IMG/VR virus record: IMGVR_UViG_3300042519_001716
Strand: one strand, 5' to 3'
Length of the DNA stretch: 64,000 nucleotides
Source of the DNA: a virus
Lineage: Duplodnaviria; Heunggongvirae; Uroviricota; Caudoviricetes
This document shows, piece by piece, positions 1-58,107 of this stretch; position 1 is the stretch's first letter; each line of letters starts with the position of its first letter. The notes beneath the pieces were generated by a model. The model searched no databases, was not told the DNA's origin, and worked only from the letters and a program-made list of their open reading frames with translations. The position numbers were made by a program, and so were the translations under genes.

Positions 1-42
1 TATTTTAAGCACGGCAGAGATACTGAAACCGCAGTATTCGCA

Positions 43-393
43 ATGTTAATGACCAAAGCAGTTAAAGACCAAGTTAGTCAAGATGACATTCAAAATTTTA
101 ATATTGGTCAAATTGCAAAGGTTGTTCACGAAACAAGTATGAAAAATACTTGTGTTAATTTTGGTGAGGGTGAATTAGTGATGCAAGATAATTACGAAAT
201 TCATTCGGTGAGTGCGTGCCGTGATGAAGATGGTGACCCCGAAGTGCATATTCATATGTACGAAATTAATTCGGGTGAAACTCATTCAGTTCGTGTGTAC
301 CAATTTCCACAATTGGATTGGTTGCTACAAATTATTGAGATGGTGAATAACAAATGTGAATTAACTTTTAATACTGATGAAGATGAAGATTAA
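43..393 (+). CDS. hypothetical early protein (reading frame open to window start, may be 5'-partial)
   Basis: ORF track; frame has no stop between nt 1 and 42; acidic C-terminus. Confidence 0.45.
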   Translation: MLMTKAVKDQVSQDDIQNFNIGQIAKVVHETSMKNTCVNFGEGELVMQDNYEIHSVSACRDEDGDPEVHIHMYEINSGETHSVRVYQFPQLDWLLQIIEMVNNKCELTFNTDEDED

Positions 394-721
394 TAAAATA
401 ATAGTTGCAAGTTCAAGCACTCAATTGAACAATAGAATTAATGAAATGATTACTGAGGGGTGGGAGCAAATTGGCTCTCACTCAGTAGTGGTTGTTCACT
501 CACAAAATAGATATGCCGGCAGTCAGCATATGGATACTATTAATGAAACTGAATATTCAGTTACAATGCAGAAGGTTGCAGATAATACCATTAGTGTTGA
601 TATTGCATTCTATCACCCCGAAGGTGAAGATGGTAATGTAGATGAAACCAAAAAGATTTTTGATGAGGAGGGAATGCGTGAGGAATTTGAAAATAAATTA
701 GCTAACCTAATTAAACAATAA
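377..721 (+). CDS. hypothetical early protein
   Basis: ORF track; 17-nt overlap with upstream gene. Confidence 0.45.
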   Translation: MKMKINKIIVASSSTQLNNRINEMITEGWEQIGSHSVVVVHSQNRYAGSQHMDTINETEYSVTMQKVADNTISVDIAFYHPEGEDGNVDETKKIFDEEGMREEFENKLANLIKQ

Positions 722-725
722 TATT

Positions 726-1196
726 ATGGGAATGGATGTAATGGGTATGAATCCAATTAATAACGAAGGAGAAACCTTCCACGCGAACTTATGGTCTTGG
801 AGACCTATTCACTATTTGTGTGAGTATTTGTCAATGAAAAATAATCTCAATTTTGATACAAAGAATTGGGGTCATAATGATGGTGGTGGATTAAGAACTC
901 AAAAGGAGTGTAATGTGTTGGCTGATAAAATAGAGAGGTATCTTAAAGACCATCCTTTTCTTAAAGGTGATGATGATCGAATGTTTATCTGCTTGGATAT
1001 GTGGTGTGATACAAACACTAATCAATTTGTGAAACCACAAGGAATATCGGTTCAGTATCCTAATGGTACAATCTTATATTCAAGCGTTGTTACAAAATCT
1101 GGTGATGTGGTTCAGCCGGCTCACTCAATATCACTTGGACATTTAAAAAGATTTATTTCATTTCTAAAAGTTTGTGGAGGATTTGAGATATTCTAA
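726..1196 (+). CDS. hypothetical protein
   Basis: ORF track, 156 aa, tight spacing after previous stop. Confidence 0.5.
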   Translation: MGMDVMGMNPINNEGETFHANLWSWRPIHYLCEYLSMKNNLNFDTKNWGHNDGGGLRTQKECNVLADKIERYLKDHPFLKGDDDRMFICLDMWCDTNTNQFVKPQGISVQYPNGTILYSSVVTKSGDVVQPAHSISLGHLKRFISFLKVCGGFEIF

Positions 1197-2771: not shown

Positions 2772-3431
2772 ATGCCAAACTGGTGCTGGAACAACTTAAT
2801 TATTTCGCCTTCAGATTCAGATGAATCTGGTGAAGGTATCAAAAGACTTCGTGCTAAACTTATGTTTATGCTTGAAGATATGACTGCGAATCCAAAGGTA
2901 TGGGGTGGTTCGTATGACTATCTGGTGGGCAGAGAAAATGATTGGGATGAGATAGATGGCTGGTACGAACATAACCTTCGTGTTTATGGAAGTAAGTGGC
3001 AGAAGTCTGCTGAGGATTTTATCGAGGCGATGGAAGATGATGGCGAATGCATTACTATGGGATTTCAATCTGCTTGGTCGCCTGTTGTTGGATTTACTAA
3101 ATTACTATCAAACCAGTACAGGCTACATATCGAGCATACATATGATGAAACTGGTGACTGGTTCGCAGGAAAGTTGGTTGTTGATTCTGGGGTGGTACTG
3201 GAAGAATTCTGTTTGGATTATTATGCAGGGACATATAAAATTGATGCAGATTTATTCTGGCACGAAATAAGAAGCAATATGGAATGCTGGGTAGAAGATG
3301 ATGAAGATGAAGCCAGAAGCCAATACGCCTCCACGCTGAAGCAACTGGATTTCTTATCACCAGAAGAATTAAAGCAACTGGATGATGAATTCAATGAAGC
3401 ACTCACAGATTATCAAAACGAAAACAAATAA
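2772..3431 (+). CDS. hypothetical acidic protein
   Basis: ORF track, 219 aa, D/E-rich; GC-richer codon usage than flanking DNA. Confidence 0.55.
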   Translation: MPNWCWNNLIISPSDSDESGEGIKRLRAKLMFMLEDMTANPKVWGGSYDYLVGRENDWDEIDGWYEHNLRVYGSKWQKSAEDFIEAMEDDGECITMGFQSAWSPVVGFTKLLSNQYRLHIEHTYDETGDWFAGKLVVDSGVVLEEFCLDYYAGTYKIDADLFWHEIRSNMECWVEDDEDEARSQYASTLKQLDFLSPEELKQLDDEFNEALTDYQNENK

Positions 3432-3440
3432 AACTATATG
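3421..3440 (+). promoter_or_regulatory. conserved early-gene upstream motif AAATAAAACTATATG (includes start codon)
   Basis: one of 6 or more near-identical copies immediately 5' of + strand genes. Confidence 0.5.
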
Positions 3441-3698
3441 GAAAATTTAGAAAGAGATTCTAAGATTGCTAACTTCAATAAGAAGTTAAAAGACATTCTA
3501 ATTGAACTGGCTGTTAATGATGAGCTACCATTGGATATGACCACGCTGGACTCCAGCGTTTTCGATCCCTGTACTACTCCGCTGGTCGATGCCCTGATTA
3601 CACTACAGGAGGATGCTGAATGGGCGTTGGATGATAGATGGGATAGAAGTGATGATGGCTTCAAAGCACAGATTGAATTAATCAACAGCGTAATTTAA
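3438..3698 (+). CDS. hypothetical protein
   Basis: ORF track, preceded by conserved motif. Confidence 0.5.
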   Translation: MENLERDSKIANFNKKLKDILIELAVNDELPLDMTTLDSSVFDPCTTPLVDALITLQEDAEWALDDRWDRSDDGFKAQIELINSVI

Positions 3699-3712
3699 AA
3701 TAAAACTATATG
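3694..3712 (+). promoter_or_regulatory. conserved motif TTTAAAATAAAACTATATG
   Basis: exact copy of the motif family ending in the ATG of gene 3710. Confidence 0.5.
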
Positions 3713-3952
3713 GAATTTATACCAGCCAGCGAAACGGCACGCAAAGAAGTACTGGATTATGCCAGACAGCAGATCAGAGTCTATGGCATTGATGTGGATT
3801 TACTACCTGATGAGTACAGAATCTCGGACAACCCTGAAGAATTTATTAAGGAAGCTGAAGCTCAGGGATTAGTATGGAGTCTCAAGGGCTTCGAGCTTCA
3901 GACTAACAATGACCAGATAAACTTCAATAATATATTCATTAAAATAATTTAA
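3710..3952 (+). CDS. hypothetical protein
   Basis: ORF track, 80 aa. Confidence 0.5.
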   Translation: MEFIPASETARKEVLDYARQQIRVYGIDVDLLPDEYRISDNPEEFIKEAEAQGLVWSLKGFELQTNNDQINFNNIFIKII

Positions 3953-3954
3953 TC

Positions 3955-4170
3955 ATGTCAGAAGAATCAAAATACTTTTTAACGGAGGTGCAATTGCATC
4001 ATATCGAATCCAACAAATGGACAGCAAAACCTAATGGAGCTTATGTAGATTTGTATCCTGAAGATTTTACTGGTGACGCGTGGAATCAAATATGTCAACA
4101 GCTGGAGATTCCAGTTGAATCAGGGTCAGCAACAATATTATACTTTGGTGTTAAAAATGAAACAATATGA
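3955..4170 (+). CDS. hypothetical protein
   Basis: ORF track, 71 aa. Confidence 0.45.
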   Translation: MSEESKYFLTEVQLHHIESNKWTAKPNGAYVDLYPEDFTGDAWNQICQQLEIPVESGSATILYFGVKNETI

Positions 4171-4478
4171 AATATAGAATCAATCAACATGACGAAATGG
4201 AATTCGATGTAATCGTCGAAGATGGTGGCGTGGTATCTGTTTACCATAATGATGAAAATCAGGTTAGCACGTATTACCAAGATAGGCTCACAGAAGATAT
4301 GAGTCCTGATGAGATCTGGGAGACTCTAGGCGAGGGAAAAGCCTATATAAAGGATTGGCCTGAAGGGACTACTAGAGAAGAGATTATTAAGGACGCATTG
4401 AACTGGCTCGTATTACCTGAACCAGAAAGCTGGGAGCTAGATGAAACTATCTGGAGCAAATTTGAATTGAGCTGGTAA
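4167..4478 (+). CDS. hypothetical acidic protein
   Basis: ORF track, ATGA overlap with upstream gene. Confidence 0.5.
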   Translation: MKYRINQHDEMEFDVIVEDGGVVSVYHNDENQVSTYYQDRLTEDMSPDEIWETLGEGKAYIKDWPEGTTREEIIKDALNWLVLPEPESWELDETIWSKFELSW

Positions 4479-4543
4479 CAAAAAAAATATTTTGTTAATT
4501 AAATAATTTTATTTATCTTCGCATACACAAAAAATATATAGTC

Positions 4544-5329
4544 ATGCATAAAAAATTTCTGTTTATGAATTACAAGACAAAAGCCGACGCAAAGCGTATT
4601 ACAGGCTTGAGCTATCTAGGTGGGATCAACACTAGCTCAAAGATCGCAAAAGGACTCAAGTATGACGAGATGACCTACATCCTTTATCTGGCTCCTGCTA
4701 AATCTAGCGGCTACGAGGTTTGCCCTATGCGCAGCAAAGAATGCACAGCTGCCTGCTTAAATGAGAGCGGGCATAACAGAATCGATATTCATGATAATAC
4801 AATTAATAAGGCGCGTATTACCAAGACGAAGTTATTTTTTGAGAATCGTCCTTTCTTTATGGGCTGGCTTATCGATGAGATCAGAAGCGCGCAGCGTAAA
4901 GCAATTGCAGCTGGCAAGAACTTCAGCGTGCGCCTGAACGGTACTAGTGACTTAAGCCCTGAACAGTTTCACCTGGATGGCAAAAACATCCTGGAGCTGT
5001 TCCCAGATGTACAGTTCTATGATTATACTAAAGTCTTCAAGCGTATACAGCTCGCGAAAAAATACAGTAACTATGATTTGACTTTTAGCTTCAGCGGAAA
5101 TAATATTGCTGAGTCACTGTTGGCCCTTGAGCAGGAGATCAGAGTAGCTGTAGTATTTGAAGAGGTTCCTGCACAGTACTGGGGCGTCCAGGTCGTTGAC
5201 GGCGATGCATATGATATGAGATATCAAGATCCAGGGAAGGTCGTGATCGGCCTGAAGTATAAGAAGGTGAGAAATAAAATAGATTTATCTAAAAGTAAAT
5301 TTATTGTTGCCAAAGAAAATATTTTGTAA
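4544..5329 (+). CDS. hypothetical protein with Cys cluster (CPMRSKECTAACL)
   Basis: ORF track, 261 aa, GC-richer composition; no family recognised with certainty. Confidence 0.5.
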   Translation: MHKKFLFMNYKTKADAKRITGLSYLGGINTSSKIAKGLKYDEMTYILYLAPAKSSGYEVCPMRSKECTAACLNESGHNRIDIHDNTINKARITKTKLFFENRPFFMGWLIDEIRSAQRKAIAAGKNFSVRLNGTSDLSPEQFHLDGKNILELFPDVQFYDYTKVFKRIQLAKKYSNYDLTFSFSGNNIAESLLALEQEIRVAVVFEEVPAQYWGVQVVDGDAYDMRYQDPGKVVIGLKYKKVRNKIDLSKSKFIVAKENIL

Positions 5330-5352
5330 CATTGTAAAAAAAAAAACACACT

Positions 5353-5694
5353 ATGGATTATGTAATGGAAATTTCTAGAATGCGCGATACTCTCCATAAG
5401 GAGATTATCCTTACAATGATAACAGATAACCGTCTGGAGAAAGACGAATACCTGATAACATTTAATCGCCCAGTTGAGTGCACGGTAATATATTATAGGC
5501 CAACAATACATGAGGGCACTGAAAATGTTATTATAACTGGAATTGACGGCGTATCAAATGAATTGATGGCAGTTAACGAAGACCATAATGATCGTTTTGT
5601 TTTTTACAGCGATCTCAGGATGGAAGATCTAGCCCTGATTCATAGAATAGTAATGACAAAAAATTATACAATAAAACAATTTCAATTATGTTAG
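5353..5694 (+). CDS. hypothetical protein
   Basis: ORF track, 113 aa. Confidence 0.5.
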   Translation: MDYVMEISRMRDTLHKEIILTMITDNRLEKDEYLITFNRPVECTVIYYRPTIHEGTENVIITGIDGVSNELMAVNEDHNDRFVFYSDLRMEDLALIHRIVMTKNYTIKQFQLC

Positions 5695-6074
5695 AACAGC
5701 TATCAACGCTAGTGAGAAAGCCGAGTAAAATTGATGAGGCGGAGCTAGATAAAATCGGATGGACATCCAGGCGCAATAAGGTCCTGGATTATATGGATCG
5801 GGACCAGGTATTACAAAGGCTCCTGGCGGATTTTAAAATCGTTAATGATCACCTAAAGCAGATAAGATCTACCAGGGATGTAAAGATCTATTATACAGAA
5901 CTTGAAAAAGCTGGCACGTACTACACGTACGCCAGATGCATCTTCAATGTTAACGGTAAGCAAACAGAATTCAGGAAGTACCTGGGAAAGAGCGACGATT
6001 TAAAACCAGGTGACATTGACGAAGACTTTTTAAAACAAATCTTTTTAAAGAAGTTAAAAAATTTCTTGGTATAA
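5688..6074 (+). CDS. hypothetical protein
   Basis: ORF track, 128 aa, 7-nt overlap. Confidence 0.5.
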   Translation: MLEQLSTLVRKPSKIDEAELDKIGWTSRRNKVLDYMDRDQVLQRLLADFKIVNDHLKQIRSTRDVKIYYTELEKAGTYYTYARCIFNVNGKQTEFRKYLGKSDDLKPGDIDEDFLKQIFLKKLKNFLV

Positions 6075-6115
6075 TCAACCAGGTTTATTACTTTTACAAT
6101 CTAATCTAAAAAACA

Positions 6116-6325
6116 ATGGAACCATATAAAGTAAAAGCAAATGAAGAATTTTTTACCAATGTTATCCATGTACTACGCGAAGGCGGCGTATGGGGTTGGC
6201 CTGATGCGGCGGTCCTGTTTACGAAGCGTGGAGATAAATTAATTGGTAATGAAATCGCAAACAGGGAAGCAAAGAAAATTGTTAGCGAAGAATTTTTTAA
6301 CAAGCACTTTGAAGTTTTAAAATAA
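6116..6325 (+). CDS. hypothetical protein
   Basis: ORF track, 69 aa. Confidence 0.45.
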   Translation: MEPYKVKANEEFFTNVIHVLREGGVWGWPDAAVLFTKRGDKLIGNEIANREAKKIVSEEFFNKHFEVLK

Positions 6326-6334
6326 AACTATATG
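6315..6334 (+). promoter_or_regulatory. conserved motif TTTTAAAATAAAACTATATG
   Basis: motif copy ending in ATG of gene 6332. Confidence 0.5.
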
Positions 6335-6730
6335 AAATCAATTAAAGTTAGATTTAACCTGGCAGCCGGTAAGAATTATATGACCTGGAAGATTGACATT
6401 CCAGGACAGCCGGCTAGGTATGTAAACCCGGATGCTGTACAGCTGCGTATGACGGGCTGCACAATTAAGAACCAGAAATCAACAGCTAGCAAGATTCACC
6501 AGGGCGCGCACAAAAGCGTATGTGCCTGGATTCTCTGCAACGAGATCAGCATCCTGGCAGATCTGGATGGGCCAAGTATTACACAGCTAAAAAATTATGA
6601 GCAGCTGTCATATAATCCCCGCGTGCAGCCCAACTGGTTATGCGGGGGACAGAATGTGGACAATGAATCGTATGACAACATTGTTAGTATGGGGAAAACT
6701 TTATTTGTGGAATTAAAAAACATTTCTTAA
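6332..6730 (+). CDS. hypothetical protein
   Basis: ORF track, 132 aa. Confidence 0.5.
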   Translation: MKSIKVRFNLAAGKNYMTWKIDIPGQPARYVNPDAVQLRMTGCTIKNQKSTASKIHQGAHKSVCAWILCNEISILADLDGPSITQLKNYEQLSYNPRVQPNWLCGGQNVDNESYDNIVSMGKTLFVELKNIS

Positions 6731-6751
6731 TATTACAAAAAAAATAAAACA

Positions 6752-7018
6752 ATGGAAAAAGTAGCAAAGTACAAAGCGGCTGCGCAAAGATGGGCAGCAA
6801 GATGGAAAGTTGAGGAGCAACACGCAATAGATGTTGCAGCATCAATATTGATGACTCGTGATAAAGTTATGATGGGCGGTAGCTTCGCTCAAGCGATTGT
6901 AGATAATAATCTGCGTGAAGCTATTAACCGAGCGGATGATACTTGTATCAAGTATTTAAAGTTCTTCAGCATCATCAACTATAACTGTGGTAGTTATGAA
7001 ATCGAAAACGGACAATAA
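6752..7018 (+). CDS. hypothetical protein
   Basis: ORF track, 88 aa. Confidence 0.5.
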   Translation: MEKVAKYKAAAQRWAARWKVEEQHAIDVAASILMTRDKVMMGGSFAQAIVDNNLREAINRADDTCIKYLKFFSIINYNCGSYEIENGQ

Positions 7019-7019
7019 G

Positions 7020-7193
7020 ATGACTAAGAATCAAATCGAACAAAAGATTGGGGAGTTGAAATCATTAAAGCTCCCACAATTAAATAAGCGAAGCAAAGCT
7101 CACCACGACTGGAAGCTGGAGATGGAGAAGCTAACTAGTTTACTGGATGGAGAAATTAATAAGATGAATAACCTTTTAAATAAAACTATATGA
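7020..7193 (+). CDS. hypothetical small coiled-coil protein (start moved to internal ATG right after upstream stop)
   Basis: track ORF 6987..7193 begins at a GTG inside the upstream gene; ATG at 7020 lies 1 nt after the upstream TAA. Confidence 0.4.
   Translation: MTKNQIEQKIGELKSLKLPQLNKRSKAHHDWKLEMEKLTSLLDGEINKMNNLLNKTI
7174..7192 (+). promoter_or_regulatory. conserved motif TTTTAAATAAAACTATATG
   Basis: motif copy ending in ATG of gene 7190. Confidence 0.5.
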
Positions 7194-7417
7194 AAGCTCT
7201 AACAAAAGGAGAACTAATGGATTTCTGGGTGAAGTATGCATATGACAAGCGAGGTGTATGGGACAACGACCCAAGCAAACCCCTGCGCACAGATACTTGG
7301 TGCGATTATCTTTATGATAACTACTGGGAGATTATGCGATTGCAGGGACTCACCAGAAACGATGTCTTCTACGGGATGAGATTCCCAATCAACAGATTTA
7401 AAAAGAATTTAAAATAG
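7190..7417 (+). CDS. hypothetical protein
   Basis: ORF track, 75 aa. Confidence 0.5.
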   Translation: MKALTKGELMDFWVKYAYDKRGVWDNDPSKPLRTDTWCDYLYDNYWEIMRLQGLTRNDVFYGMRFPINRFKKNLK

Positions 7418-7423
7418 ATTTAT

Positions 7424-7741
7424 ATGAAAGCTATATTCATTGATGCAAAAAATCGTCAGGTATCCATTATTGAGAATAAGGGACAGCTGGAAGACAAATA
7501 CTTAATCCTGAAGGTCGACATGGTGGAGATTGGTTTTTACTGGGAGAATGGAGATACTCTATGGGTTGATGAGGAAGGATTAATTAACGGAACCGATTAT
7601 GGATTTCAACTGGAAGGTAGAGAGTTCATGGGCAACGGCTTAATCTACGGGACTAATGTTGAGAACCCTGAATTATGTGATTCCGCCGTTACTCCATTAA
7701 AAGATATCAAAATTAAATTCTTCACCTTAATACCAGCATAA
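7424..7741 (+). CDS. hypothetical protein
   Basis: ORF track, 105 aa, preceded by motif variant TTTAAAATAGATTTATATG. Confidence 0.5.
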   Translation: MKAIFIDAKNRQVSIIENKGQLEDKYLILKVDMVEIGFYWENGDTLWVDEEGLINGTDYGFQLEGREFMGNGLIYGTNVENPELCDSAVTPLKDIKIKFFTLIPA

Positions 7742-8157
7742 TGGCAACACCACTTATACACGCACAGTCCTCTGTCAAGAAATGGAGAGGATGTACAGAC
7801 GACTATGTATCCATCCATGCCAAGATGGATTGCAGCAAGAAGTATTTTCCTGATAACAGGCACAGGCTGCTAACGCATAATATGTTCTTTATCTTTGAGG
7901 TAATCATTCCCCTGTATGGTGAATATATAGTTAACTCGGATGGTAGAAGCGTAAGCGTTAAAGATATCTGCGAGCTTCACATCCTGGAGGATTATCATAT
8001 GAAGTATATCCCGACGCCGCAAGACTGGCTGGAAAACTTGCAGCTCAAGCCCTGGATGAATAACGGCCTGGGAGAAGCACCATCATCCGCCAAGCTACGC
8101 TTCCCAGATGGAATAGTTAGAACAGAAACAAAAACAGTTAGAGAATATATTGATTAA
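7741..8157 (+). CDS. hypothetical protein
   Basis: ORF track, 138 aa. Confidence 0.5.
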   Translation: MATPLIHAQSSVKKWRGCTDDYVSIHAKMDCSKKYFPDNRHRLLTHNMFFIFEVIIPLYGEYIVNSDGRSVSVKDICELHILEDYHMKYIPTPQDWLENLQLKPWMNNGLGEAPSSAKLRFPDGIVRTETKTVREYID

Positions 8158-8175
8158 CCCATAAACCTTATTATT

Positions 8176-8628
8176 ATGTCTGAAATAAAAAAAACAAAAA
8201 GAGAAACAATCGCTCAACTAGCAGAAAAGTTCCCTGGTGTCGCCACATTTGAAGTCGCTTATCAGGGCGCAGGTGATAACTTTGATTCATTCTTTGATTT
8301 CATAATGAAAGATTCAGCAGGTAATGAAATTGAATCATCACAAACTGATGAGGATAGTTTTTTAACCATTGCTGATGATTACATATGGCACATATTTGAC
8401 AAAGCGCAGAGCCAGCCAGATTTTAATAACGACGGCTCGGAAGGTAAAGTTATCTTTGATATGATAAACAAAGTTGTTATCCTGGAAGTAACCTACCTGG
8501 AAGATGTAACCCCAGATTATGACGGTGATGAAGACGACCCAGACTATGATGAGAAGCGTGATGAGTACTGGGATAATATGGATGAAAGGGACTGGGAATA
8601 TCATGTCCAGAAGCCTGAAGAATTCTAA
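8176..8628 (+). CDS. hypothetical strongly acidic protein (DNA-mimic / Ocr-like candidate)
   Basis: 150 aa with dense D/E runs (DYDGDEDDPDYDEKRDEYWDNMDERDWEY); early-region location. Confidence 0.5.
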   Translation: MSEIKKTKRETIAQLAEKFPGVATFEVAYQGAGDNFDSFFDFIMKDSAGNEIESSQTDEDSFLTIADDYIWHIFDKAQSQPDFNNDGSEGKVIFDMINKVVILEVTYLEDVTPDYDGDEDDPDYDEKRDEYWDNMDERDWEYHVQKPEEF

Positions 8629-8645
8629 TCCGCCAGTCGGGCTAG

Positions 8646-8690
8646 CTCCCGCTTGTGCTGCAAGCTTGCGCAGCGGGATCACACTTTTTA
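8646..8690 (+). terminator. Rho-independent terminator candidate (CCCGCT..AGCGGG hairpin with internal GCAAGCTTGC palindrome, then CTTTTTAAT)
   Basis: GC-rich inverted repeat plus T-run directly after the 8176..8628 gene. Confidence 0.5.
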
Positions 8691-8692
8691 AT

Positions 8693-8715
8693 CTTAAATA
8701 AAACTATTTCAAATG
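8693..8715 (+). promoter_or_regulatory. motif variant CTTAAATAAAACTATTTCAAATG
   Basis: variant of the conserved upstream motif, ends in ATG of gene 8713. Confidence 0.4.
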
Positions 8716-8967
8716 GAAGATAGATCATTTAGAGTTGTATGGGAGATCGATGTAGATGCTCCTGATGCAAGGACAGCTGCTGTCCAAGCACATGACAGTG
8801 TCATCAACGGGCTAGCTTCAGTATACGAAATTCATGAGTGGGACCAGCCGGATATGATTACCGCAACCCCGGTTGCGATGATTGATGTGAAGGAACCGGA
8901 TGCCGATCTACCGGTCCCAGACAGAAGGATCTTTAACGAAAACTACATGGGCCCCACAATTATTTAA
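8713..8967 (+). CDS. hypothetical protein
   Basis: ORF track, 84 aa. Confidence 0.5.
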   Translation: MEDRSFRVVWEIDVDAPDARTAAVQAHDSVINGLASVYEIHEWDQPDMITATPVAMIDVKEPDADLPVPDRRIFNENYMGPTII

Positions 8968-8979
8968 GGGACCTAATCA

Positions 8980-8998
8980 TTTAAAATAAAACTATATG
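8980..8998 (+). promoter_or_regulatory. conserved motif TTTAAAATAAAACTATATG
   Basis: exact motif copy ending in ATG of gene 8996. Confidence 0.5.
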
Positions 8999-9184
8999 AA
9001 TCCTCAAATCTTAAAGCTATGGATAGAGTCAAGAAGATCTCATGTCCAGTATTGTCAAGCAATTGGTATTAAATTTACCGAACAAGAAGCTAACGCCATC
9101 CTCAGCATCCTGAACGAACTGGAAGAAGACTTCAACCTGGAGCTATACGCAAAGGAAGAATATCAATTCCAAAATAATTTTTGA
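8996..9184 (+). CDS. hypothetical protein
   Basis: ORF track, 62 aa. Confidence 0.45.
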   Translation: MNPQILKLWIESRRSHVQYCQAIGIKFTEQEANAILSILNELEEDFNLELYAKEEYQFQNNF

Positions 9185-9230
9185 TTTTAAGAAAATATTC
9201 TTAACTTCACTAAAATAAAAAAACACTCGT

Positions 9231-9788
9231 ATGACAGAAGTTATTAACCTATCAAGCAATGTTATTGTTAGCGACCCTTGCTACAGTAGACCAACCTGGT
9301 GCCAAACAGTACTAACAGATGTATTACCTGGAAGATATATTTCCCAGGTGAATGAAGATCCTGAAACCGACAGGTGTGCTGAGCTACTCGTCATACACGA
9401 GGATTATTACCAGAAGCATCTAGACTATGTCGATCATTCAAGCTGCGGGGTTGACAGTGGGCAGCTGGGGATCTTTGATGCCGCGTCATACAGAAACGAT
9501 GCTGCAGCTGCAGGTATCTCAACGCCGCGTATTAAATTCTCTGTTGCAGGTGATTACCAGGACGGTGACGCCTGGTATGAAAAGATGTGTAAGATCACCT
9601 TGGGTGAGCCACTTCGGTATGGAGCGTATGACACAGGTGTGGTTTCCTCAAGCGGATGGGGAGATGGAATGTACCCGCTGCAGGTGGCCAGAAATGATGG
9701 CGGCCAGATTGTTGGAATGCTGGTAACATTCATTGACCTTGAGGACGAAGATGAGGATGACTTCCTGATGGACGATGATGAAGATTAA
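9231..9788 (+). CDS. hypothetical protein with acidic C-terminal tail (DLEDEDEDDFLMDDDED)
   Basis: ORF track, 185 aa. Confidence 0.5.
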   Translation: MTEVINLSSNVIVSDPCYSRPTWCQTVLTDVLPGRYISQVNEDPETDRCAELLVIHEDYYQKHLDYVDHSSCGVDSGQLGIFDAASYRNDAAAAGISTPRIKFSVAGDYQDGDAWYEKMCKITLGEPLRYGAYDTGVVSSSGWGDGMYPLQVARNDGGQIVGMLVTFIDLEDEDEDDFLMDDDED

Positions 9789-9872
9789 ATAAAACTATTT
9801 CAAAATATATTTGCCCCAGATTTTTTTGTTCCAGTTTTTTTCCTTATATTTTATTATAAATTAATAAATGAT

Positions 9873-10055
9873 ATGAAAAAAACAAAAGCAACTCAGTCCC
9901 AGCCCCTGACCTATTCGTCAGTGGCACCAAACATTTACTTCGACGGTACTAGTTACCGTGTAAGAATGATTCTAAACGGAGAGCGCTACAGCAAGAACTT
10001 AACTTCTAAGCGTGCTGCAGTAATGTACCGTAACTCACTTCTTAAGACAGCTTAA
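9873..10055 (+). CDS. small basic protein, possible arm-type/AP2-like DNA-binding domain
   Basis: IYFDGTSYRVRMILNGERYSKNLTSKRAAVMYRNSL resembles integrase N-terminal DNA-binding folds; weak. Confidence 0.35.
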   Translation: MKKTKATQSQPLTYSSVAPNIYFDGTSYRVRMILNGERYSKNLTSKRAAVMYRNSLLKTA

Positions 10056-10081
10056 TAAGCTTCCTGGTATAGGTTTGTTCA

Positions 10082-10117
10082 AAAGGGGACCTGAGGAATC
10101 GGATCCCCTTTTTTTAA
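10082..10117 (+). terminator. Rho-independent terminator (AAAAGGGGA..TCCCCTTTTTTT)
   Basis: inverted repeat plus T-run directly after the 9873..10055 gene. Confidence 0.7.
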
Positions 10118-10129
10118 TATTTATATAAC

Positions 10130-10858
10130 ATGAGAGAACAAAACGAACCAACAAAACTATCCATTACCGGCAAGACGCTAGCGGGACTAGCCGGCCAGGT
10201 ATTCAAAGATGGCCCATATGAATATAGAATATACGTGAAGACCGGCGAGCTTGGAGACTCGACAATCGTATCCATATCCATCTTCATCGAGAACACTCCT
10301 CCGCATGTAGGTGTGGACCTGTACCTAATGGCCCTAAAACGTGTGGCCGAAGTGGCCGGCGATCACATAGAAAATTCAGAATGGATGATCAATAAGGTAA
10401 TCATAGAACAATATGAAGCCCTGGGTGAAATGACCCCAATGGTCACCGGACAAAGATCAAACATATTCGGGCTCCAATCATATAGAAGCCTCGAAGAGAA
10501 AATTAGAACCAATCTAACAAAATCAATTAACTTTCAACAAGTAAACGATATTATAGATGTTAGAAAAAGAAAGCTAACCAAGGTTCTTAACTATATGCAG
10601 AAAACACTACCAACATATAAGCAACCTCTTAACATAACTTACACCATATCTGGTGAAGTAAAAAGACACAACGAAGAAATCCTGGCTCCAAGTATTAAAG
10701 CAGATATCAATGTCACCATGGTAGAAAAACCAAAAGCAAGCGATCACACCGCAAGAGTAATTATAGACGCTATAAAAGATAGTATATATGAAATGATAGA
10801 AGATCTATCACCCATAGACATCCACTCGTATGACAACATTACAATAAAAGTATCATAA
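10130..10858 (+). CDS. hypothetical protein
   Basis: ORF track, 242 aa, GC-richer composition. Confidence 0.55.
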   Translation: MREQNEPTKLSITGKTLAGLAGQVFKDGPYEYRIYVKTGELGDSTIVSISIFIENTPPHVGVDLYLMALKRVAEVAGDHIENSEWMINKVIIEQYEALGEMTPMVTGQRSNIFGLQSYRSLEEKIRTNLTKSINFQQVNDIIDVRKRKLTKVLNYMQKTLPTYKQPLNITYTISGEVKRHNEEILAPSIKADINVTMVEKPKASDHTARVIIDAIKDSIYEMIEDLSPIDIHSYDNITIKVS

Positions 10859-10866
10859 GATGCTCG

Positions 10867-11151
10867 GACCAGTACCATACTGGTCCTCGCCGTATGACGC
10901 CCAGACTAACCCTCTGGGTTTTTTTATGCGTCTATCTTATGACCGCGTATGACTGGCCCACTGTATGACGGTCCAGCAGCGAGCCGGTCAGTATAGTACT
11001 GACTGGCGAGCATTCTAAATAAAACTATTTTAAAATTGCGTATGACACGCCAGGACATATATGCTCGCCCAGTACCATACTGGGCTCGTCCTGCGGAGCC
11101 GTATGACATCCCCTTATTTATGCACAATATATCCCCTCTTTTATGCACAAT
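10867..11151. repeat. noncoding iteron/inverted-repeat cluster: five GTATGAC boxes, three CAGTA-N3-TACTG palindromes, 2x ATCCCCTYWTTTATGCACAAT direct repeat
   Basis: GTATGAC at 10892, 10947, 10963, 11040, 11101; palindromes at 10867-10886, 10984-11006, 11067-11085; direct repeats at 11108-11128 and 11131-11151; only shadow ORFs present. Confidence 0.6.
10900..10927 (+). terminator. Rho-independent terminator (CCCAGA-loop-TCTGGG then TTTTTTTAT)
   Basis: 6-bp stem plus 7-T run after the last + strand early gene. Confidence 0.6.
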
Positions 11152-11350
11152 TAAATCGGCCCGTAATACACCGGACGCGCGCAAGCAGGCGAGCCCTCGA
11201 TCCCCTTTATGGGAGAGGGCGAGATCATATAAAACTGTTTAAATTCCAAATTATTTTTTTTGTGGGTCGTGAGTCACACAAGGTACACTTCCTGGAGAGT
11301 TCCCACTTATCCCCATTTTCTCCCACTTTTTGCGATTGTAATACAGCTAG

Positions 11351-11376
11351 CCAAAAAAAGTGCCCCTAGTGGGGCT
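11351..11376 (-). terminator. Rho-independent terminator on - strand (GCCCC-ACTA-GGGGC then TTTTTTT)
   Basis: stem-loop plus T-run read on the reverse strand, downstream of the leftward HNH gene. Confidence 0.5.
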
Positions 11377-11542
11377 TGTATCGCTATAAAATCAGCTACG
11401 ATGGAATCAGTACCTAAAATGGCAGTATTATACACATATATTTGCATAAATATGGACTTTTTGGCATGTTTCTATTGTGCAGATTTTAGACCATTTATTG
11501 TGCCAAATCCGGAAGTAAAAACGCGCCAAACCAGGAAGTTAG

Positions 11543-11596
11543 TGTTCACAAAATACTGTTGTTCACGGATCGTGAACAGAGAACAAACGTGAACAT
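11543..11596. promoter_or_regulatory. operator-like nested dyad: TGTTCACA-N9-TGTTCACG-GAT-CGTGAACA-N10-CGTGAACA
   Basis: perfect 8-3-8 palindrome at 11560-11578 flanked by two further half-sites in mirrored orientation. Confidence 0.5.
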
Positions 11597-11640
11597 ATAG
11601 GGCTCGCAATCTCTCGATTGCTCGCTGCGAAGCAGGTAGT

Positions 11641-11674
11641 ATGATCGCCCCTTCGCATAAAGTGCTTAGGGGCT
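11641..11674 (-). repeat. 34-bp copy (31/34 identical) of the start region of the LpxH-like gene at 23398-23432; forms a hairpin enclosing an ATG
   Basis: ATGATCGCCCCTTCGCATAAAGTGCTTAGGGGCT versus ATGATCGCCCTTTCGCATAAAGTGCTCAAGGGCT; two of the three differences are compensatory in a 6-bp stem. Confidence 0.6.
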
Positions 11675-11685
11675 TTAACAATATA

Positions 11686-12225
11686 CTATATAAATTTAAA
11701 GATATAACCTTTAAATGATTTTACATCTCCCCTTAAAACCTTTCTAATTCTTTGACTATTTTTTCTTAAAGCAACATTTTTAAGATCGGGGTAAAAATAC
11801 CTTGTAGCTTCATTTACTGAATTAAAGGTTTTTGTTTCATTTGTTTTTTTATTAACCATAAGGACAGGTTTATCGAGTCTACCTAAAGAAACCCCAACAG
11901 TATCGATATAGTGTTTAATATTCTCATCTCCTGTGACCCATTCAAGATTCTCTATTCGATTATCATTTTTAATCAAATTAATATGATTTACTTCTGGTTT
12001 ATTTTCTGTATTAGGAATAAATGCAGTTGCAATTAATCTATGTATAAAATGTCTTTTTCTTTTATAACCATTTTGCAACGTAACATTAATATAACCTTTA
12101 TTTGTTTTTAATGGTGTGAGTAATCTATTTCTATGTTTAGAATATACCTCACCATTCATACTTACAAAATAAACTCCGTCATATCCAGGAATTTCTTTCC
12201 ATATTGATTCATTACTTAAATCCAT
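11686..12225 (-). CDS. HNH homing endonuclease with AP2-type DNA-binding region
   Basis: NGEVYSKHRNRLL..GYINVTL..HRLIATAFIPN..VNHINLIKNDNRIENLEW; typical free-standing phage HNH. Confidence 0.75.
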   Translation of the reverse strand: MDLSNESIWKEIPGYDGVYFVSMNGEVYSKHRNRLLTPLKTNKGYINVTLQNGYKRKRHFIHRLIATAFIPNTENKPEVNHINLIKNDNRIENLEWVTGDENIKHYIDTVGVSLGRLDKPVLMVNKKTNETKTFNSVNEATRYFYPDLKNVALRKNSQRIRKVLRGDVKSFKGYIFKFI

Positions 12226-21995: not shown

Positions 21996-22703
21996 TTAAT
22001 CCCAATATTTGTGTGATTGCCTAAAAAATTCAGGATTGTTTCTATTGATATATGCTTTAACCATAATGTTAAACATCCAAAAAATACCTTTTGATTTAAA
22101 TCTTCTTGGTGATGTATATATGCCGGATAAATTTAAAATTTTAAATTCTTTGACATTCACTTTCTTTGATAAAGAATAATCCTCTGCAAATAATTCCAGG
22201 GGATTATAACCACCAACTTTCCAATAAGATCGTGTGTTCCAAAGTTGAAATCCACCTATAGCAAATGGTGTTCCGGCTAGTATCGATAACCTTTGAAATA
22301 TATCAAAAACCCTAAATACCCATCTATATGGGTAATCTGTATAAAATGGTACTGTTATTAAATCTTTATGGTGTTTTAAACACTCTTCTAACATAATTGG
22401 ATTTGTTAAAAACACATCAGCATCCAGAAATAACATATAGGGTGTATTAACCAATATACTACCATTAAATCTCGCTTCTGATGGGTAACCACCCTTAATC
22501 ACCTCAATGTCTAATAGATGGCTAAAATCTCTTATTAAGTCCCTTATATGAAATAAAGAATCATATGTATCAGACACATCAGATATTATTATCCTTGTGC
22601 CATTAATATTGGTTTGTTTAGAGATATTATATACACAATCATATAATGTCCTTGACTCATTCTTGGACGGAATAACAATTGTTAAATTATTTTTTATATT
22701 CAT
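21996..22703 (-). CDS. family 2 glycosyltransferase
   Basis: LTIVIPSKNES N-terminal GT-A signature and LFLDADVFL DxD motif. Confidence 0.6.
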   Translation of the reverse strand: MNIKNNLTIVIPSKNESRTLYDCVYNISKQTNINGTRIIISDVSDTYDSLFHIRDLIRDFSHLLDIEVIKGGYPSEARFNGSILVNTPYMLFLDADVFLTNPIMLEECLKHHKDLITVPFYTDYPYRWVFRVFDIFQRLSILAGTPFAIGGFQLWNTRSYWKVGGYNPLELFAEDYSLSKKVNVKEFKILNLSGIYTSPRRFKSKGIFWMFNIMVKAYINRNNPEFFRQSHKYWD

Positions 22704-23415
22704 GTGAGCAATATATTCCGTTGTTATATGTTATATATGAATTATTTTCTATCCAGTCACCAGTGTTTAAGTATCTTATACCATCAACCATTCTGTCCTC
22801 TGGATGATGTATATGTCCACAGATTACTGAGTGACAGTGATGCTTCTTGGCTTGTCTTGTTAATTCTATTTCAAATTGTGTAATAAACTTAACAGCTTCC
22901 TTTACTTTGTCTTTTAAAAACTTGGATAACGATCGTTTCATCCCAAATTTTTTAAGTCTTCTATCAATTGTAATGGCCATATCATAACCAATAGACCCCA
23001 GAACACCCAACCATTTTAATTTAACCACACCATCATAAAGATCCCCATGTGTAATAAAAGTATTTTTCCAAATATACTCGTTGTGAATTTCAATATTTCC
23101 AAAGGAGAATTCCCCATATTCCCTTAAGAACTCATCATGGTTACCAGGAATGTAAATCACTTTACACCCATTCTTTGAATGTGATAAAATTTTTCTTAAT
23201 ACGTTTGTGTGAGACTGTGGCCAACGGAACTTTCTTTTTAATAACCAACCATCTATTATATCCCCAACCAAAAAAAGATATTCAGGTTGATATTGTTTAA
23301 GAATTGCTAAAACACCTTCGGCGTTAGAACCCTTTGATCCGAGGTGTACATCGGATATGAATAATGCTTCTATCTTCATCTTCTTATAAATATCATAATG
23401 ATCGCCCTTTCGCAT
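22687..23415 (-). CDS. LpxH-family metallophosphoesterase (UDP-2,3-diacylglucosamine pyrophosphatase-like)
   Basis: LFISDVHLG, LVGDIIDGW, IPGNHDEFL, ITHGDL and CGHIHHPE blocks align in order with E. coli LpxH motifs. Confidence 0.7.
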   Translation of the reverse strand: MRKGDHYDIYKKMKIEALFISDVHLGSKGSNAEGVLAILKQYQPEYLFLVGDIIDGWLLKRKFRWPQSHTNVLRKILSHSKNGCKVIYIPGNHDEFLREYGEFSFGNIEIHNEYIWKNTFITHGDLYDGVVKLKWLGVLGSIGYDMAITIDRRLKKFGMKRSLSKFLKDKVKEAVKFITQFEIELTRQAKKHHCHSVICGHIHHPEDRMVDGIRYLNTGDWIENNSYITYNNGIYCSHEYKK

Positions 23416-23432
23416 AAAGTGCTCAAGGGCTC
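23398..23432 (-). repeat. second copy of the 34-bp hairpin element, overlapping the LpxH-like start codon
   Basis: see 11641..11674. Confidence 0.6.
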
Positions 23433-23721
23433 TGACGTAGCATTATGTTAAATTTTTATTAACAATTATTTACTTTTTGCCAGTTTTCTCGTATTTATTT
23501 TCTGTAGGTTTTCTGACAGAAAAAGGAAGGCTTTCGCCCAGAGGGTAATTCAGAAATTGAGAGTATGGGTCTAATTGGTGGGGTAGTTCTAAATAAGAAT
23601 GAGACGTACCAACTACAAAAGAGGTCAACGTTTATAAGGTTAATATGGGGAACGATCTGTTGAGGATCAAATCTGGTTAGCTGAAGCTCGTTGGGTTAGT
23701 CAAAGTTGAGAGTAAATTCTC

Positions 23722-25427: not shown

Positions 25428-25976
25428 CTAATCAATTTGATACCAAAGATAATTTAGATACTTATGTGTTTCACTATTTAAAGCTCTCCTAATTTCTTTT
25501 GATCTATTTTTTAATTTTTGTGCTGTTCTTTCCTCAGGTAAAACCAAACTCTTAGCGGCACTATGTTTTGTATTGAATATGACCTCTTCTTTTGTTAAGA
25601 GATCTATTCTTTTTATTTTTACCGGTGAGCAATGGGTATACCCCAACACATTAATAGCGTGGTCTCTGTTTTCTTCATCATTGCTCCATTTCAAATTTTC
25701 TAAAACATTGTTTGTTTTATTACCATCCCAATGATTAACCTGATCATACTTATCTGGATCTGGATTGGGTGAAAAGGATTCCAACAATAGTATGTGTACT
25801 CTATGTTTTTTACCAACACCGTTTTTACTCAATTCTATTCTGTGATAACCATCTTCAGTAAGGAACGGTTTGATAAATTTATTTGACCTAATACTAAAGA
25901 TCTGACCATTTTCGGTAATTGTGTAATGTCCTTTGTAATTCTTTACATTTTTCATTTTAATCTCTGAGTTTTCCAT
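25428..25976 (-). CDS. HNH homing endonuclease
   Basis: HYTITENGQIFS..GYHRIELSKNG..HRVHILLLESF..VNHWDGNKTNNVLENLKW. Confidence 0.7.
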   Translation of the reverse strand: MENSEIKMKNVKNYKGHYTITENGQIFSIRSNKFIKPFLTEDGYHRIELSKNGVGKKHRVHILLLESFSPNPDPDKYDQVNHWDGNKTNNVLENLKWSNDEENRDHAINVLGYTHCSPVKIKRIDLLTKEEVIFNTKHSAAKSLVLPEERTAQKLKNRSKEIRRALNSETHKYLNYLWYQID

Positions 25977-25988: not shown

Positions 25989-26960
25989 TTATAGTTCGTA
26001 CTTCATTCTGGGAACGAAAACATCTTCATCATCTTCCATCTCGTTTTTCCAAAAATCTTTTGGTAGCTTAGAAATGAATGTTATATCTTCATTTTCATTA
26101 TCAATCCTTATTTCAATTATCTTATGGCCGTCGTTAACCTTTTCTTGAATTTTAAGTTCAACCAATTCAACAAGGTCTTCATAATAATCACAAAACCATT
26201 CTCCGCCAGTATTTCTATCCTTTTCGTTAAAGAAATCATGTAACTCTCTTTCAAGCCTAACACATAATTTTGTTGTCATGGTCCAAGCTCTTAATGCTTT
26301 AACACACATTGGTGATAGTGTTCCACCACTCCTTTTATCAATTGATAACATATCCATTCTATCTGAAACATTTTTACCTATACCAATTTTTTTATCATAA
26401 TGTTTCATTTGAAACTTCTTTGGTCTTTTGTGTGCCATCTTGTCACCCCACTCGGCAATATATAATGAACAGGTTGTTATCTTTTCATTATAGAGACATT
26501 CATCTTCCGAATCTAATATCTTCTCGTCATATATTTTATACCCATTTTTATCTAATGTGTAGTTTTTAAAAGAATCTATTCTAAATTTAAACCCATAACT
26601 GTTGTATGCTTTAATACATTCATAGTTATTTAATTGCTTTTCTAATTCTTTAGCTGTTATAGACGGTGACTCACCGGTGATCTTTTGATTTAGATCGTCT
26701 ATGTTTAATAACGCAATAACATCTCTAATTTCATCTTTAATTGTTTCCGAGATTTCATATACCGAATTTTTTGTTCCACCAGCATCAATAATTTCTCTCT
26801 CTCTTAATAAATTATTCCAGGATAATCTGGATAAAAAAGTGTAATCACATTGAATCTCTTCCACACATCTCAATATGATGTACCATTCATAATAGCCTTG
26901 AGATTTTAGATGTTCATAAATAAATTTCGTGTCTGAACTAGATAGGTAAATTGTTTTCAT
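25989..26960 (-). CDS. hypothetical protein
   Basis: ORF track, 323 aa. Confidence 0.5.
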   Translation of the reverse strand: MKTIYLSSSDTKFIYEHLKSQGYYEWYIILRCVEEIQCDYTFLSRLSWNNLLREREIIDAGGTKNSVYEISETIKDEIRDVIALLNIDDLNQKITGESPSITAKELEKQLNNYECIKAYNSYGFKFRIDSFKNYTLDKNGYKIYDEKILDSEDECLYNEKITTCSLYIAEWGDKMAHKRPKKFQMKHYDKKIGIGKNVSDRMDMLSIDKRSGGTLSPMCVKALRAWTMTTKLCVRLERELHDFFNEKDRNTGGEWFCDYYEDLVELVELKIQEKVNDGHKIIEIRIDNENEDITFISKLPKDFWKNEMEDDEDVFVPRMKYEL

Positions 26961-55056: not shown

Positions 55057-55057
55057 T

Positions 55058-55336
55058 ATGCCAAAAAGGAAAAGAGAATCAATATTTTTAACTACACCTA
55101 CCCCGCAATCATCTTCTTTCACAATTGCTGACGCAAAGTATATTGATACATGTGAATGGTGTTTTCAATTCGATGATGACCAACCGATAGTATTTGCAAA
55201 AGGGTCAAAAAAAGAGTTTGCATCTGAACCTAAAATAAGTTTTACCTTAACAAATAGAACAGATAGTACCATGACTTTTTTTGATGATAAAACAAAAAAG
55301 AAATTAAAGATCTTCACAAGAGAAAAGGCCATTTAA
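55058..55336 (+). CDS. hypothetical protein
   Basis: ORF track, 92 aa. Confidence 0.4.
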   Translation: MPKRKRESIFLTTPTPQSSSFTIADAKYIDTCEWCFQFDDDQPIVFAKGSKKEFASEPKISFTLTNRTDSTMTFFDDKTKKKLKIFTREKAI

Positions 55337-55337
55337 T

Positions 55338-56800: not shown

Positions 56801-56804
56801 TCAA

Positions 56805-58106: not shown

Positions 58107-58107
58107 A

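Follow-up and report, generated by a model that had tools for sequence, protein, structure and literature searches.

What is the same 34-nt sequence doing at two distant points of one phage genome, beside a homing-endonuclease gene at one of them and a phosphoesterase gene at the other? The genome is that of IMG/VR record IMGVR_UViG_3300042519_001716, a virus of the Caudoviricetes, of which we analyzed one stretch of 64,000 nt (hereafter, the window). An initial annotation, made from the letters of the window alone, had taken the repeat for a hairpin around the start codon of an LpxH-like phosphoesterase gene, with the second copy a possible footprint of gene mobility driven by an HNH endonuclease. 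We find that the two copies belong to a multi-copy hairpin family that is under selection for base pairing and under still stronger selection on its 15-nt apex, and whose members lie in intergenic DNA at the ends of gene blocks and at the edges of variable cassettes. The family is apparently undescribed: no Rfam family matches the window at gathering score (around the two copies there is only noise, with E > 0.04, far below gathering), and in the literature the loop sequence occurs in unrelated primers only.

The genome falls among the uncultured T4-like myoviruses, judging by Pfam matches to Kyano_Gp96, T4_Y16D, and GP88 and by distant tblastn matches to large T4-like phages of Vibrio and Aeromonas; no GenBank phage gave a near-identity match to 10.5 to 24.5 kb. 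We designate the related loci used here by numbers with the prefix L. Near-identical strains (L081-L095) came from exact-protein look-ups, and 21 further loci came from one metagenome pattern scan.

Copies of the hairpin in the window

Positions 11641-11674 and 23398-23431 have 31 of 34 bases in common, with three mismatches (ATGATCGCCCCTTCGCATAAAGTGCTTAGGGGCT versus ATGATCGCCCTTTCGCATAAAGTGCTCAAGGGCT), and shuffled sequence gave 0 matches comparable to this pair, which bears out the recurrence first reported. The likeness reaches 39 nt at 87%. We refer to the two copies as R1 (11641-11679, minus strand) and R2 (23398-23436, minus strand). Genes before 10.9 kb are on the plus strand and genes from 11686 to ~51.3 kb are all on the minus strand, so the minus strand is the relevant reading of R1 and R2. 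On that strand, R1 forms a hairpin at 11673-11647 (GCCCCU-AA-GCA-CUUUA-UGC-GA-AGGGGC; covariance model 56.6 bits, E 1e-17) that begins 12 nt past the stop codon of the HNH gene, at the end of the minus-strand gene block. The R2 hairpin lies at 23430-23404 (GCCCUU-GA-GCA-CUUUA-UGC-GA-AAGGGC; 58.6 bits), in the 5' region of the phosphoesterase gene, with its loop ATG at 23415-23413. Minimum free energies are -15.7 kcal/mol for R1 and -14.3 kcal/mol for R2, with z-scores of -3.7 and -2.6, respectively.

The 6-bp stem and the ATG in the apex are as originally described, but the supposed 15-nt loop itself pairs (GCA/UGC), so the hairpin is an interrupted one. Two of the three differences between the copies do form a compensatory stem pair, a C-G/U-A exchange; the third mismatch is in the internal loop. 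Three random substitutions would include a compensatory double change with a probability of 0.021, a figure for two copies only. Taken alone, this pair is weak evidence for structure, suggestive and not conclusive, and the firm evidence comes from the wider family.

Both of the copies first noted are real, but they are not the only ones. A covariance model run across the whole window with filters off added a third, R3 (11187-11226, plus strand; GCCCUC / GA(U) / CCC-CUUUA-UGG / GA / GAGGGC; 28.7 bits, E ~1e-7). R3 opposes R1 across a convergent junction, each copy closing one of the two converging gene blocks. An identical copy of R3 is present in L088-L094 and L097, and orthologous copies flanked by GUAUUAC are present in L101, L102, L103, and L109. 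The window thus has three copies and the phage has four or more, the fourth being supplied by the near-identical strain L114 (99-100% amino-acid identity to window 1-1196), where it lies ~4.4 kb left of window position 1. A weak model match at 11061-11091 was rejected as a degenerate copy; it belongs to a different hairpin family, CCAGTACCATACTGG.

Covariation across the hairpin family

The metagenome and the exact-protein look-ups together yielded 68 model matches with 32 distinct sequences, from ~40 metagenomic loci. The element is 35-40 nt long. Its GC-rich outer stem of 5-7 bp is variable as long as it is paired; above this stem are a symmetric GA/GA internal loop, a co-varying 2-bp G-C/C-G stem, and a CUUUA loop that is fixed. 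Conservation of the flanks is weak (A[A/G]AG on the 5' side and CGAUCUAC-like on the 3' side). The near-invariant apex, GA-GC[A/C/U]CUU[U/C]AUGC-GA, is carried on at least 11 different paired stems: GCCCUU/AAGGGC, GCCCCU/AGGGGC, GCCCC/GGGGC, GCCCCC/GGGGGC, GCCCGCC/GGCGGGC, GGCCCU/AGGGCC, GGCGCC/GGCGCC, GGCCGC/GCGGCC, CCUGU/ACGGG (with one G.U), GCCCUC/GAGGGC, and GCCCAG/CUGGGC.

Among 28 distinct loop-anchored copies, changes on both sides occur at 8 of the 10 pairs, with a single one-sided change (U.G). Paired cells account for 86% in these copies compared to 70% in shuffles, and double-change cells number 41 compared to 10 expected; the observed values were reached by 0 of 500 shuffles. When the partner strand is slid by 1-3 columns, pairing falls to 25-53%. 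The 68-match model alignment gives the same covariation picture, and over both analyses the ranges are 69-70% paired cells in shuffles, 41-48 double-change cells compared to 10-11 expected, and 25-55% pairing in slid registers. With all of at least 11 stems paired and the signal collapsing in shifted register, the earlier argument that covariation reflects selection on a base-paired structure holds well beyond the two copies on which it was founded.

Because the family seeds had been filtered on the five inner stem pairs, we also checked pairing in matches to which no stem filter was applied. The stem was paired at five of five positions in all 12 exact-core matches and in 9 of 11 one-mismatch matches, the two exceptions being one actinomycete and one planctomycete genome. 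The two apical pairs, which were never filtered, change by compensation only (G-C to C-G in 3-6 copies, C-G to U-A in 2), and a third apical "pair" (A-U) is not maintained across copies. The tandem G.A arises on this strand only; a single G.U pair occurs, in L096.

The loop ATG and the start of the phosphoesterase gene

The gene next to R2 encodes a calcineurin-like phosphoesterase (22687-23379, minus strand; Pfam Metallophos, E 3e-13), with a probable start at 23379 and a product of 230 aa. Public gene calls (L081-L087) start it at the loop ATG of R2, as does its longest ORF, for a product of 242 aa in which the Metallophos domain begins at residue 18. All 80 of 80 IMG/VR relatives align from a Met 12 codons (36 nt) downstream of the loop ATG (MKIEA...). 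Upstream of that Met, the relatives have non-homologous sequence ending in an (A/C)TATTTAT box 3-5 nt before the ATG, and the box is present in 40+ relatives. The window has a promoter-like box, ATATTTATAA, at 23393-23384 on the minus strand, between R2 and the downstream start codon, where it may serve as a promoter. In L098, a close relative that bears R2, the loop ATG reads ATG CGA AAG GGC GAA CAT TAA, with an in-frame stop after six codons. Every copy has this ATG in its invariant loop, even where no gene is near.

Judged by these sequence comparisons, the real start is most likely 23379. The public calls would then be 12 codons too long, given the starts in the relatives, the position of the box, and the stop in L098, and correcting them would be one practical outcome of this work. 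The same three observations tell against the proposal that the hairpin holds the start codon as a translational operator. At R1, a 31-codon ORF (11563-11658, minus strand) does start at the loop ATG, as had been pointed out, but the MRRGDH by which it was taken for a gene remnant merely translates the conserved 3' half of the hairpin, and we judge the ORF spurious.

A (G)ATATTTAT(A) box is found 4-12 nt before the ATG of the phosphoesterase gene and six other window genes (10130 and 35867 and 51591 on the plus strand; 27658, 36402, and 42622 on the minus strand), without a Shine-Dalgarno sequence and often after a terminator hairpin. The box looks promoter-like, with very short leaders. A plain terminator directly precedes it at genes 10130 and 27658 and at the phosphoesterase gene of L101. 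The 285-nt non-coding stretch upstream of R2 folds no better than shuffles (z -1.5). The phosphoesterase gene is paired with a glycosyltransferase gene, and gene order around the pair (18-24 kb) varies with lineage: most IMG/VR relatives have it beside the junction, downstream of w20237/w19901, and in the window and L101, it is upstream of w20237.

Distribution of copies and homology islands

R2 is restricted to the window's close clade (L081-87, L098, L100, L107, L108, and L115). In L101, L111, and L112, the phosphoesterase gene is preceded by a terminator, TTAAC, 21 nt, GATATTTATAA, and the ATG, without the hairpin. The spacing from TTAAC to the box is 53 nt in the window compared to 21 nt in those three loci, and the surplus is R2. 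We infer from this alignment that R2 is probably a copy that landed in the promoter spacer of the phosphoesterase gene in one sub-lineage. Its core is identical to the junction copy of L101, L103, L104, and L111.

Other copies form sharp islands of homology. R1 is 100% identical over 33-37 nt to the copies in L110, L113, L114, and L116, between otherwise unrelated flanks. The same four loci also have an identical 65-nt island at the fourth locus, with flanks on both sides that are unrelated among them. Besides the hairpin, this island comprises the CTATTTATAC box and the start codon of a gene pointing leftward. Homology of the window to L101/L112 runs from w12212 through a different gene, a 43-nt island at the element, and unrelated DNA to the junction blocks. 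Simple recombination between R1 and R2 was considered and rejected, as it cannot give the gene order of the window.

Outside the sub-lineage, we did not find the family. A model search of the 80 IMG/VR relatives detected no copy within 10 kb of the phosphoesterase gene, and exact-pattern scans of IMG/VR did not find the element; on these two results, we regard the family as confined to the sub-lineage. Among 185,579 cellular species genomes, a scan limited to GCC-stem pattern variants gave two matches only, both unpaired, which we attribute to chance because their flanks do not pair. No arrays were present among these matches, which gives no support to a solitary mimic of CRISPR repeats (an RNA anti-CRISPR).

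The gene slot beside R1

The gene adjoining R1 is a free-standing HNH homing-endonuclease gene (11686-12225, minus strand; NUMOD4, HNH_3, and I-HmuI-like) whose stop is 12 nt from the R1 stem, as the initial annotation stated. It is one of several occupants of the position 5' of R1. In L101 and L112, a w12212 homologue (82% identity) is followed by a 358-aa gene and then by the element and the junction; in L105, the same 358-aa gene is followed by the element and then the junction. The 358-aa gene has sub-threshold LAGLIDADG matches and a match to PDB 2dch ("putative homing endonuclease") at E 0.002. The slot neighbor is YunG-like in L104, and unrelated proteins of 132 aa (L102), 194 aa (L103 and L111), and 151 aa (L106) are encoded there in other relatives. 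In L101-L106, L111, and L112, the stop codon of the slot gene is 7-52 nt before the element in all cases.

The check proposed for the homing footprint was a comparison with relatives lacking the HNH gene, and it turned out against that idea: the junction copy is retained without this gene in L101, L102, L103, L104, L105, L106, L109, L111, and L112. Since the junction copy is widely conserved with other neighbors, we regard the HNH gene as interchangeable with the other genes found in that slot. In the 97%-identical strain L082, homology ends at 12230, five bases upstream of the HNH start. Near-identical strains without the HNH gene were sought through w12212, a search that returned only HNH-positive strains. 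Homing-endonuclease genes of two families directly adjoin the junction copy, so the element may be a target or landmark for homing.

The explanation with which the locus was first presented, in which the hairpin sequesters the phosphoesterase start codon and the 11.6-kb copy is a gene-start remnant left by HNH homing, is consistent with the longest ORF and the public gene calls and with the 12 nt between the HNH gene and R1. We consider it barely credible given the downstream start in the relatives, the stop in L098, the box between the hairpin and the real ATG, the persistence of the junction copy without the HNH gene, and the contrast between a widely conserved junction position and a phosphoesterase copy found in one sub-lineage only.

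Selfish genes may occupy this slot elsewhere too. Where the hairpin is missing, the final gene ahead of the junction looks, by eye, TnpB-like in L016 (14010-15377) and HNH-like in L041 (13515-14903), and the slot seems to attract selfish genes in general. The window has three HNH/NUMOD4 genes and one T5orf172/MUG113 gene within 16 kb (11686-12225, 25428-25976, 25989-26960, and 27180-27578, all on the minus strand), and an 80-nt stretch, 70% identical, is common to the HNH genes at 11.9 kb and 27.2 kb.

The convergent junction, terminators, and promoter-like boxes

R3 and R1 both lie in a non-coding, repeat-rich convergent junction of 830 bp (10859-11685). Its repeats are CGTATGAC (five copies), TTTATGCACAAT (two copies), a CGGAAGT tandem (11508-11540, with a 22-25-nt period), and TGTTCAC (four copies, 11543-11597). 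It also has two intrinsic terminators, the DnaA-box-like GTGAKTCACACA and GTGAGTCACACA, and the second co-varying hairpin family, CCAGTACCATACTGG, at 10868-10888 and 11068-11086. Blocks 11265-11470 and 11011-11048 are kept in L101-L112. The homologous region of L102, L103, L106, L109, and L111 holds up to five copies of the element in alternating orientation within 1.5 kb. The junction is possibly an origin or a regulatory hub. Comparison of the junction with relatives gave nothing by blastn-short; permissive blastn recovered the TGTTCAC and ACTTCC motifs and did not find the element.

In nine contexts involving six unrelated genes, the element is sense-oriented with the gene whose stop codon precedes it by 7-77 nt. 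Some copies adjoin canonical terminators (L111-4124, L109-2349, L102-2638, L101-7287, and L109-928), and others adjoin promoter-like boxes (R2 and L116). In L028, which lacks the element, an unrelated stable hairpin, GGGGTCCgttaGGACCCC, is at the equivalent spot. Many of the relatives' junction copies come directly behind a canonical terminator and are preceded, at 8 nt, by an additional GGGATG box; we rejected this box as the start of a small ORF because its frame relative to the hairpin differs between copies. The sense tails of the hairpin are CGAUCA, CGAUCU, or CGUAUU, with no U-tract, and a terminator scan left R1, R2, and R3 unflagged. U6 occurs only in copies flanked by AAAAAAG, on the opposite strand; there, the fourth-locus copy reads as hairpin, UUUUUU, 11 nt, CTATTTATAC, AAT, and ATG.

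Several further features of the junction and its surroundings were observed. TTTAAAATAAAACTAT abuts the ATG of five plus-strand genes (3694, 6316, 7174, 7408, and 8980; window 3694-9008), and a related sequence, TAAATAAAACTATTTTAAAA, is present at 11017-11036 in the junction and in the junctions of relatives; the two are probably a second class of promoter or initiation signal. On the minus strand, 11345-11470 contains a ATATTTATG box and a TGTGTATAAT box, followed ~70 nt on by an intrinsic terminator (11375-11352), in a block that is 70-83% conserved in L101-L112. A candidate small RNA at 11345-11440 folds no better than shuffles (z -0.4). The plus-strand block next to the junction (3000-11600) has a GC content of 38-42% compared to 29-35% elsewhere. 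A small protein with a DnaA_C domain is encoded at 28945-29361 (minus strand).

What the element may do

The reading that we favor, as a tentative one that falls somewhat short of an even chance, is that the hairpin is read in single-stranded form, probably as RNA, and that it serves as punctuation for transcription units and as a source of homology where cassettes are exchanged. The hairpin would most likely be read as RNA in the sense of the neighboring genes, with a factor contacting the invariant apex, and the end of a transcription unit would thereby be defined, protected, or insulated. The element would take the spot that an ordinary hairpin or terminator occupies in relatives, usually beside a terminator or a ATATTTAT promoter-like box. 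Its copies may double as short homology patches at which cassettes are exchanged or inserted, including the HNH and LAGLIDADG homing-endonuclease genes. We favor a sense, single-stranded reading because the tandem G.A arises on this strand only and because the element is sense-oriented after gene ends; punctuation and exchange are favored by positions matching the plain hairpins and terminators of relatives and by the sharp homology islands, and a role as homology patches is suggested by ~35 nt that stay identical in otherwise unrelated surroundings.

Several observations weigh against this reading. No candidate binding protein is present among the window families listed, nor is any HUH/Y1, RNA-binding, or RNA-polymerase gene. 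Set against ~90 genes, 3-5 copies per 64 kb or contig are too few for a general gene signal. The orientation argument draws on ~7 independent genomic sites, the opposite strand of R1 and R2 folds about equally well, and the fourth-locus copy in L114 is antisense to both neighbors. Several copies are just downstream of a canonical terminator, where little sense RNA is expected, and the lack of a U-tract after the hairpin in sense orientation means that the element is not a classical terminator. Finally, a recombinant joining the flanks of two copies was not seen among the loci: none of the 21 pattern matches has a hybrid junction with the left side of R2 and the right side of R1.

We think it unlikely that the element instead acts at the DNA level, as a hairpin in single-stranded or cruciform DNA that is bound by a replication or recombination protein at an origin-like junction. 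Copies are concentrated in a non-coding region of iteron-like repeats (CGGAAGT, TGTTCAC, CGTATGAC, and the DnaA-box-like GTGAKTCACACA), as many as five of them alternate within 1.5 kb in L102, L103, L106, L109, and L111, several lie past terminators where little RNA would be made, and the DnaA_C-domain protein is encoded in the window. Rolling-circle replication and CRESS-DNA origins have an invariant loop, a co-varying GC stem, and nearby iterons. The CGUAUUAC or GAUCUAC flank recalls what we take to be HUH nick-site motifs, and TGTTCACC is presumably the P4 ori iteron. However, transcription converges at the junction and does not diverge, a large distance separates R2, the fourth-locus copy, L111-4124, and L109-928 from the junction repeats, the families listed for the window (in one Pfam search, 25 of the 37 matched) include no HUH, Rep, or Y1 protein, and the assignment as an origin is one of resemblance only. 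Mobility offers a different account of the cassette edges, and we rate it as rather improbable: a small copied element, either a hairpin like those of repetitive extragenic palindromes (REPs) or miniature inverted-repeat transposable elements (MITEs) or a landmark for homing endonucleases, would owe its position to its own movement or targeting. The stretches of 33-37 nt that R1 has in common with L110, L113, L114, and L116 are identical between unrelated flanks even in the stem, which is free to vary, and the R2 core matches the junction copy of L101, L103, L104, and L111. R2 also resembles an insertion of ~32 nt into the promoter spacer, with a possible CATAATG/CATTATG flank, and HNH, LAGLIDADG-like, and (in relatives without the element) TnpB-like and HNH-like genes occupy the junction slot. 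REPs carry a GTAG foot, and on the other strand, many copies begin with GTAG-AUC-stem (GAUCUAC in sense). The window copies, on the other hand, have GATCAT (GAUCAU) and not GTAG, others having CGUAUUAC; copies are few; terminal inverted repeats are lacking, as is any target duplication above chance; neither a transposase nor a REP-associated tyrosine transposase (RAYT) was found among the families listed; and the element is absent from the 185,579 cellular species genomes and the IMG/VR scans. An invariant apex on diverging stems points to long-term functional selection and not to recent copying alone.

That the element is an ordinary intrinsic terminator or terminator-promoter cassette, its loop conserved by shared ancestry only, is improbable enough that we give it little weight. 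The fourth-locus copy on the opposite strand does have the order hairpin, UUUUUU, box, and ATG, reverse-strand tails always start with CU(U/C)U, and genes 10130 and 27658 and the L101 phosphoesterase have a plain terminator directly before the ATATTTAT box. Yet the sense U-tract is absent, most antisense tails are weak, R1, R2, and R3 were all passed over by the terminator scan, and the canonical terminators beside several copies would make the element redundant; the 15-nt apex has changed far less than the stems, the opposite of the pattern of a terminator.

Returning to punctuation and exchange, the reading can be put in a more specific form, which we hold to be unlikely in full: a phage or host factor would recognize the GA-GCnCUUUAUGC-GA apex in single-stranded nucleic acid, and this would set the ends of transcription units and the points at which cassettes, including those of two homing-endonuclease families, are inserted or swapped between co-infecting aquatic T4-like phages. 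If the reading that we favor holds, a strongly covarying motif is added to the few known from uncultured aquatic T4-like phages, and the placement of variable cassettes and homing-endonuclease genes at fixed genome points gains a testable handle. Nothing established is overturned by the finding.

Other features of the window

A sugar-nucleotide and glycosyltransferase gene island is present at 52451-60954 on the plus strand, within the minus-strand region, and its UDP-galactopyranose mutase is ~60% identical to those of Streptococcus suis phages. ARAGORN called a 91-nt tRNA-Arg(CCG) at 63391-63481 (minus strand), overlapping the ORF 62474-63475; the call is probably false because there is no Rfam tRNA match at gathering score.

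Comparison with known systems

The element resembles several known classes of hairpin and coincides with none of them. With rolling-circle and CRESS-DNA origin hairpins, it has in common an invariant loop, a GC-rich co-varying stem, and iterons nearby. It differs from CRESS origins in that no HUH Rep was found among the families listed, the loop does not contain the nonanucleotide-like motif, several copies lie a long way from any iterons, and the phage is T4-like, with a large double-stranded genome. In the boxB of lambda nut sites, a 5-bp stem carries a GNRA-like pentaloop that is read by a protein, and an early promoter and a boxA lie upstream. The element is similar to boxB in having few copies per genome, an invariant loop, a co-varying stem (the lambda stem GCCCU/AGGGC is itself similar), and a place in leaders and between units. 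It shows neither that stem and pentaloop nor the early promoter and boxA; unlike boxB, it is an interrupted hairpin with a 15-nt apex, and its junction copies follow gene ends and not promoters.

The element also recalls intrinsic terminators and the stable intercistronic hairpins of T4, which are of the C(UUCG)G type: it is rich in GC, it comes after the final gene of a unit, and plain hairpins take its position in relatives. In contrast to intrinsic terminators, it has no sense U-tract, it has a conserved 15-nt apex with tandem G.A, and it is often beside a separate canonical terminator. REPs, or bacterial interspersed mosaic elements (BIMEs), with their RAYTs, are imperfect intergenic palindromes that number from tens to hundreds in bacterial chromosomes and lack an invariant loop. 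Our element shares with them the form of a 30-40-nt imperfect intergenic palindrome, often after gene ends and alternating in clusters; it differs in having 3 copies in 64 kb and no Y1/HUH family among the Pfam matches listed. As to the GTAG foot, the copies are divided, many having GTAGATC on the other strand and those of the window having no GTAG.

The closest comparison is with the promoter early stem-loops (PeSLs) of T4-like myoviruses, described together with PmSL cassettes (Arbiol et al. 2010; Comeau et al. 2014, PMC4122927). A PeSL is a stem-loop followed by a sigma70-like -35/-10 promoter and a Shine-Dalgarno sequence, with a loop that is not conserved, and PeSLs have been proposed to supply homology for cassette exchange in T4-like phages (PMC4122927). 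Recombination between PeSL copies can give mini-circles or deletions. Like PeSLs, the copies described here are short repeated intergenic stem-loops in a T4-like phage, they can be next to a promoter and start codon (R2 and, on the other strand, the fourth-locus copy), and they lie in variable regions, at the edges of indels and replacements between close relatives, where they form homology islands between unrelated cassettes. The genes in the R1 slot, the flanks of the fourth locus, and the presence of R2 all differ between relatives in this way. Unlike in PeSLs, the apex of the hairpin is invariant and is carried on a co-varying stem, the DNA after R1 and R3 is non-coding, with no promoter or gene, the orientation to the promoter box is variable, and copies are few. 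No sigma70-type site was called after R1, R2, or R3, and R2 is followed only by the ATATTTATAA box and an ATG, with no Shine-Dalgarno sequence. We therefore rate the element as not a PeSL by definition and, on the balance of these likenesses, as probably a variant of that general kind. If the more specific form of the reading, with recognition of the apex by a phage or host factor, is true, the hairpin would be a sequence-specific, structure-dependent counterpart of the PeSLs.

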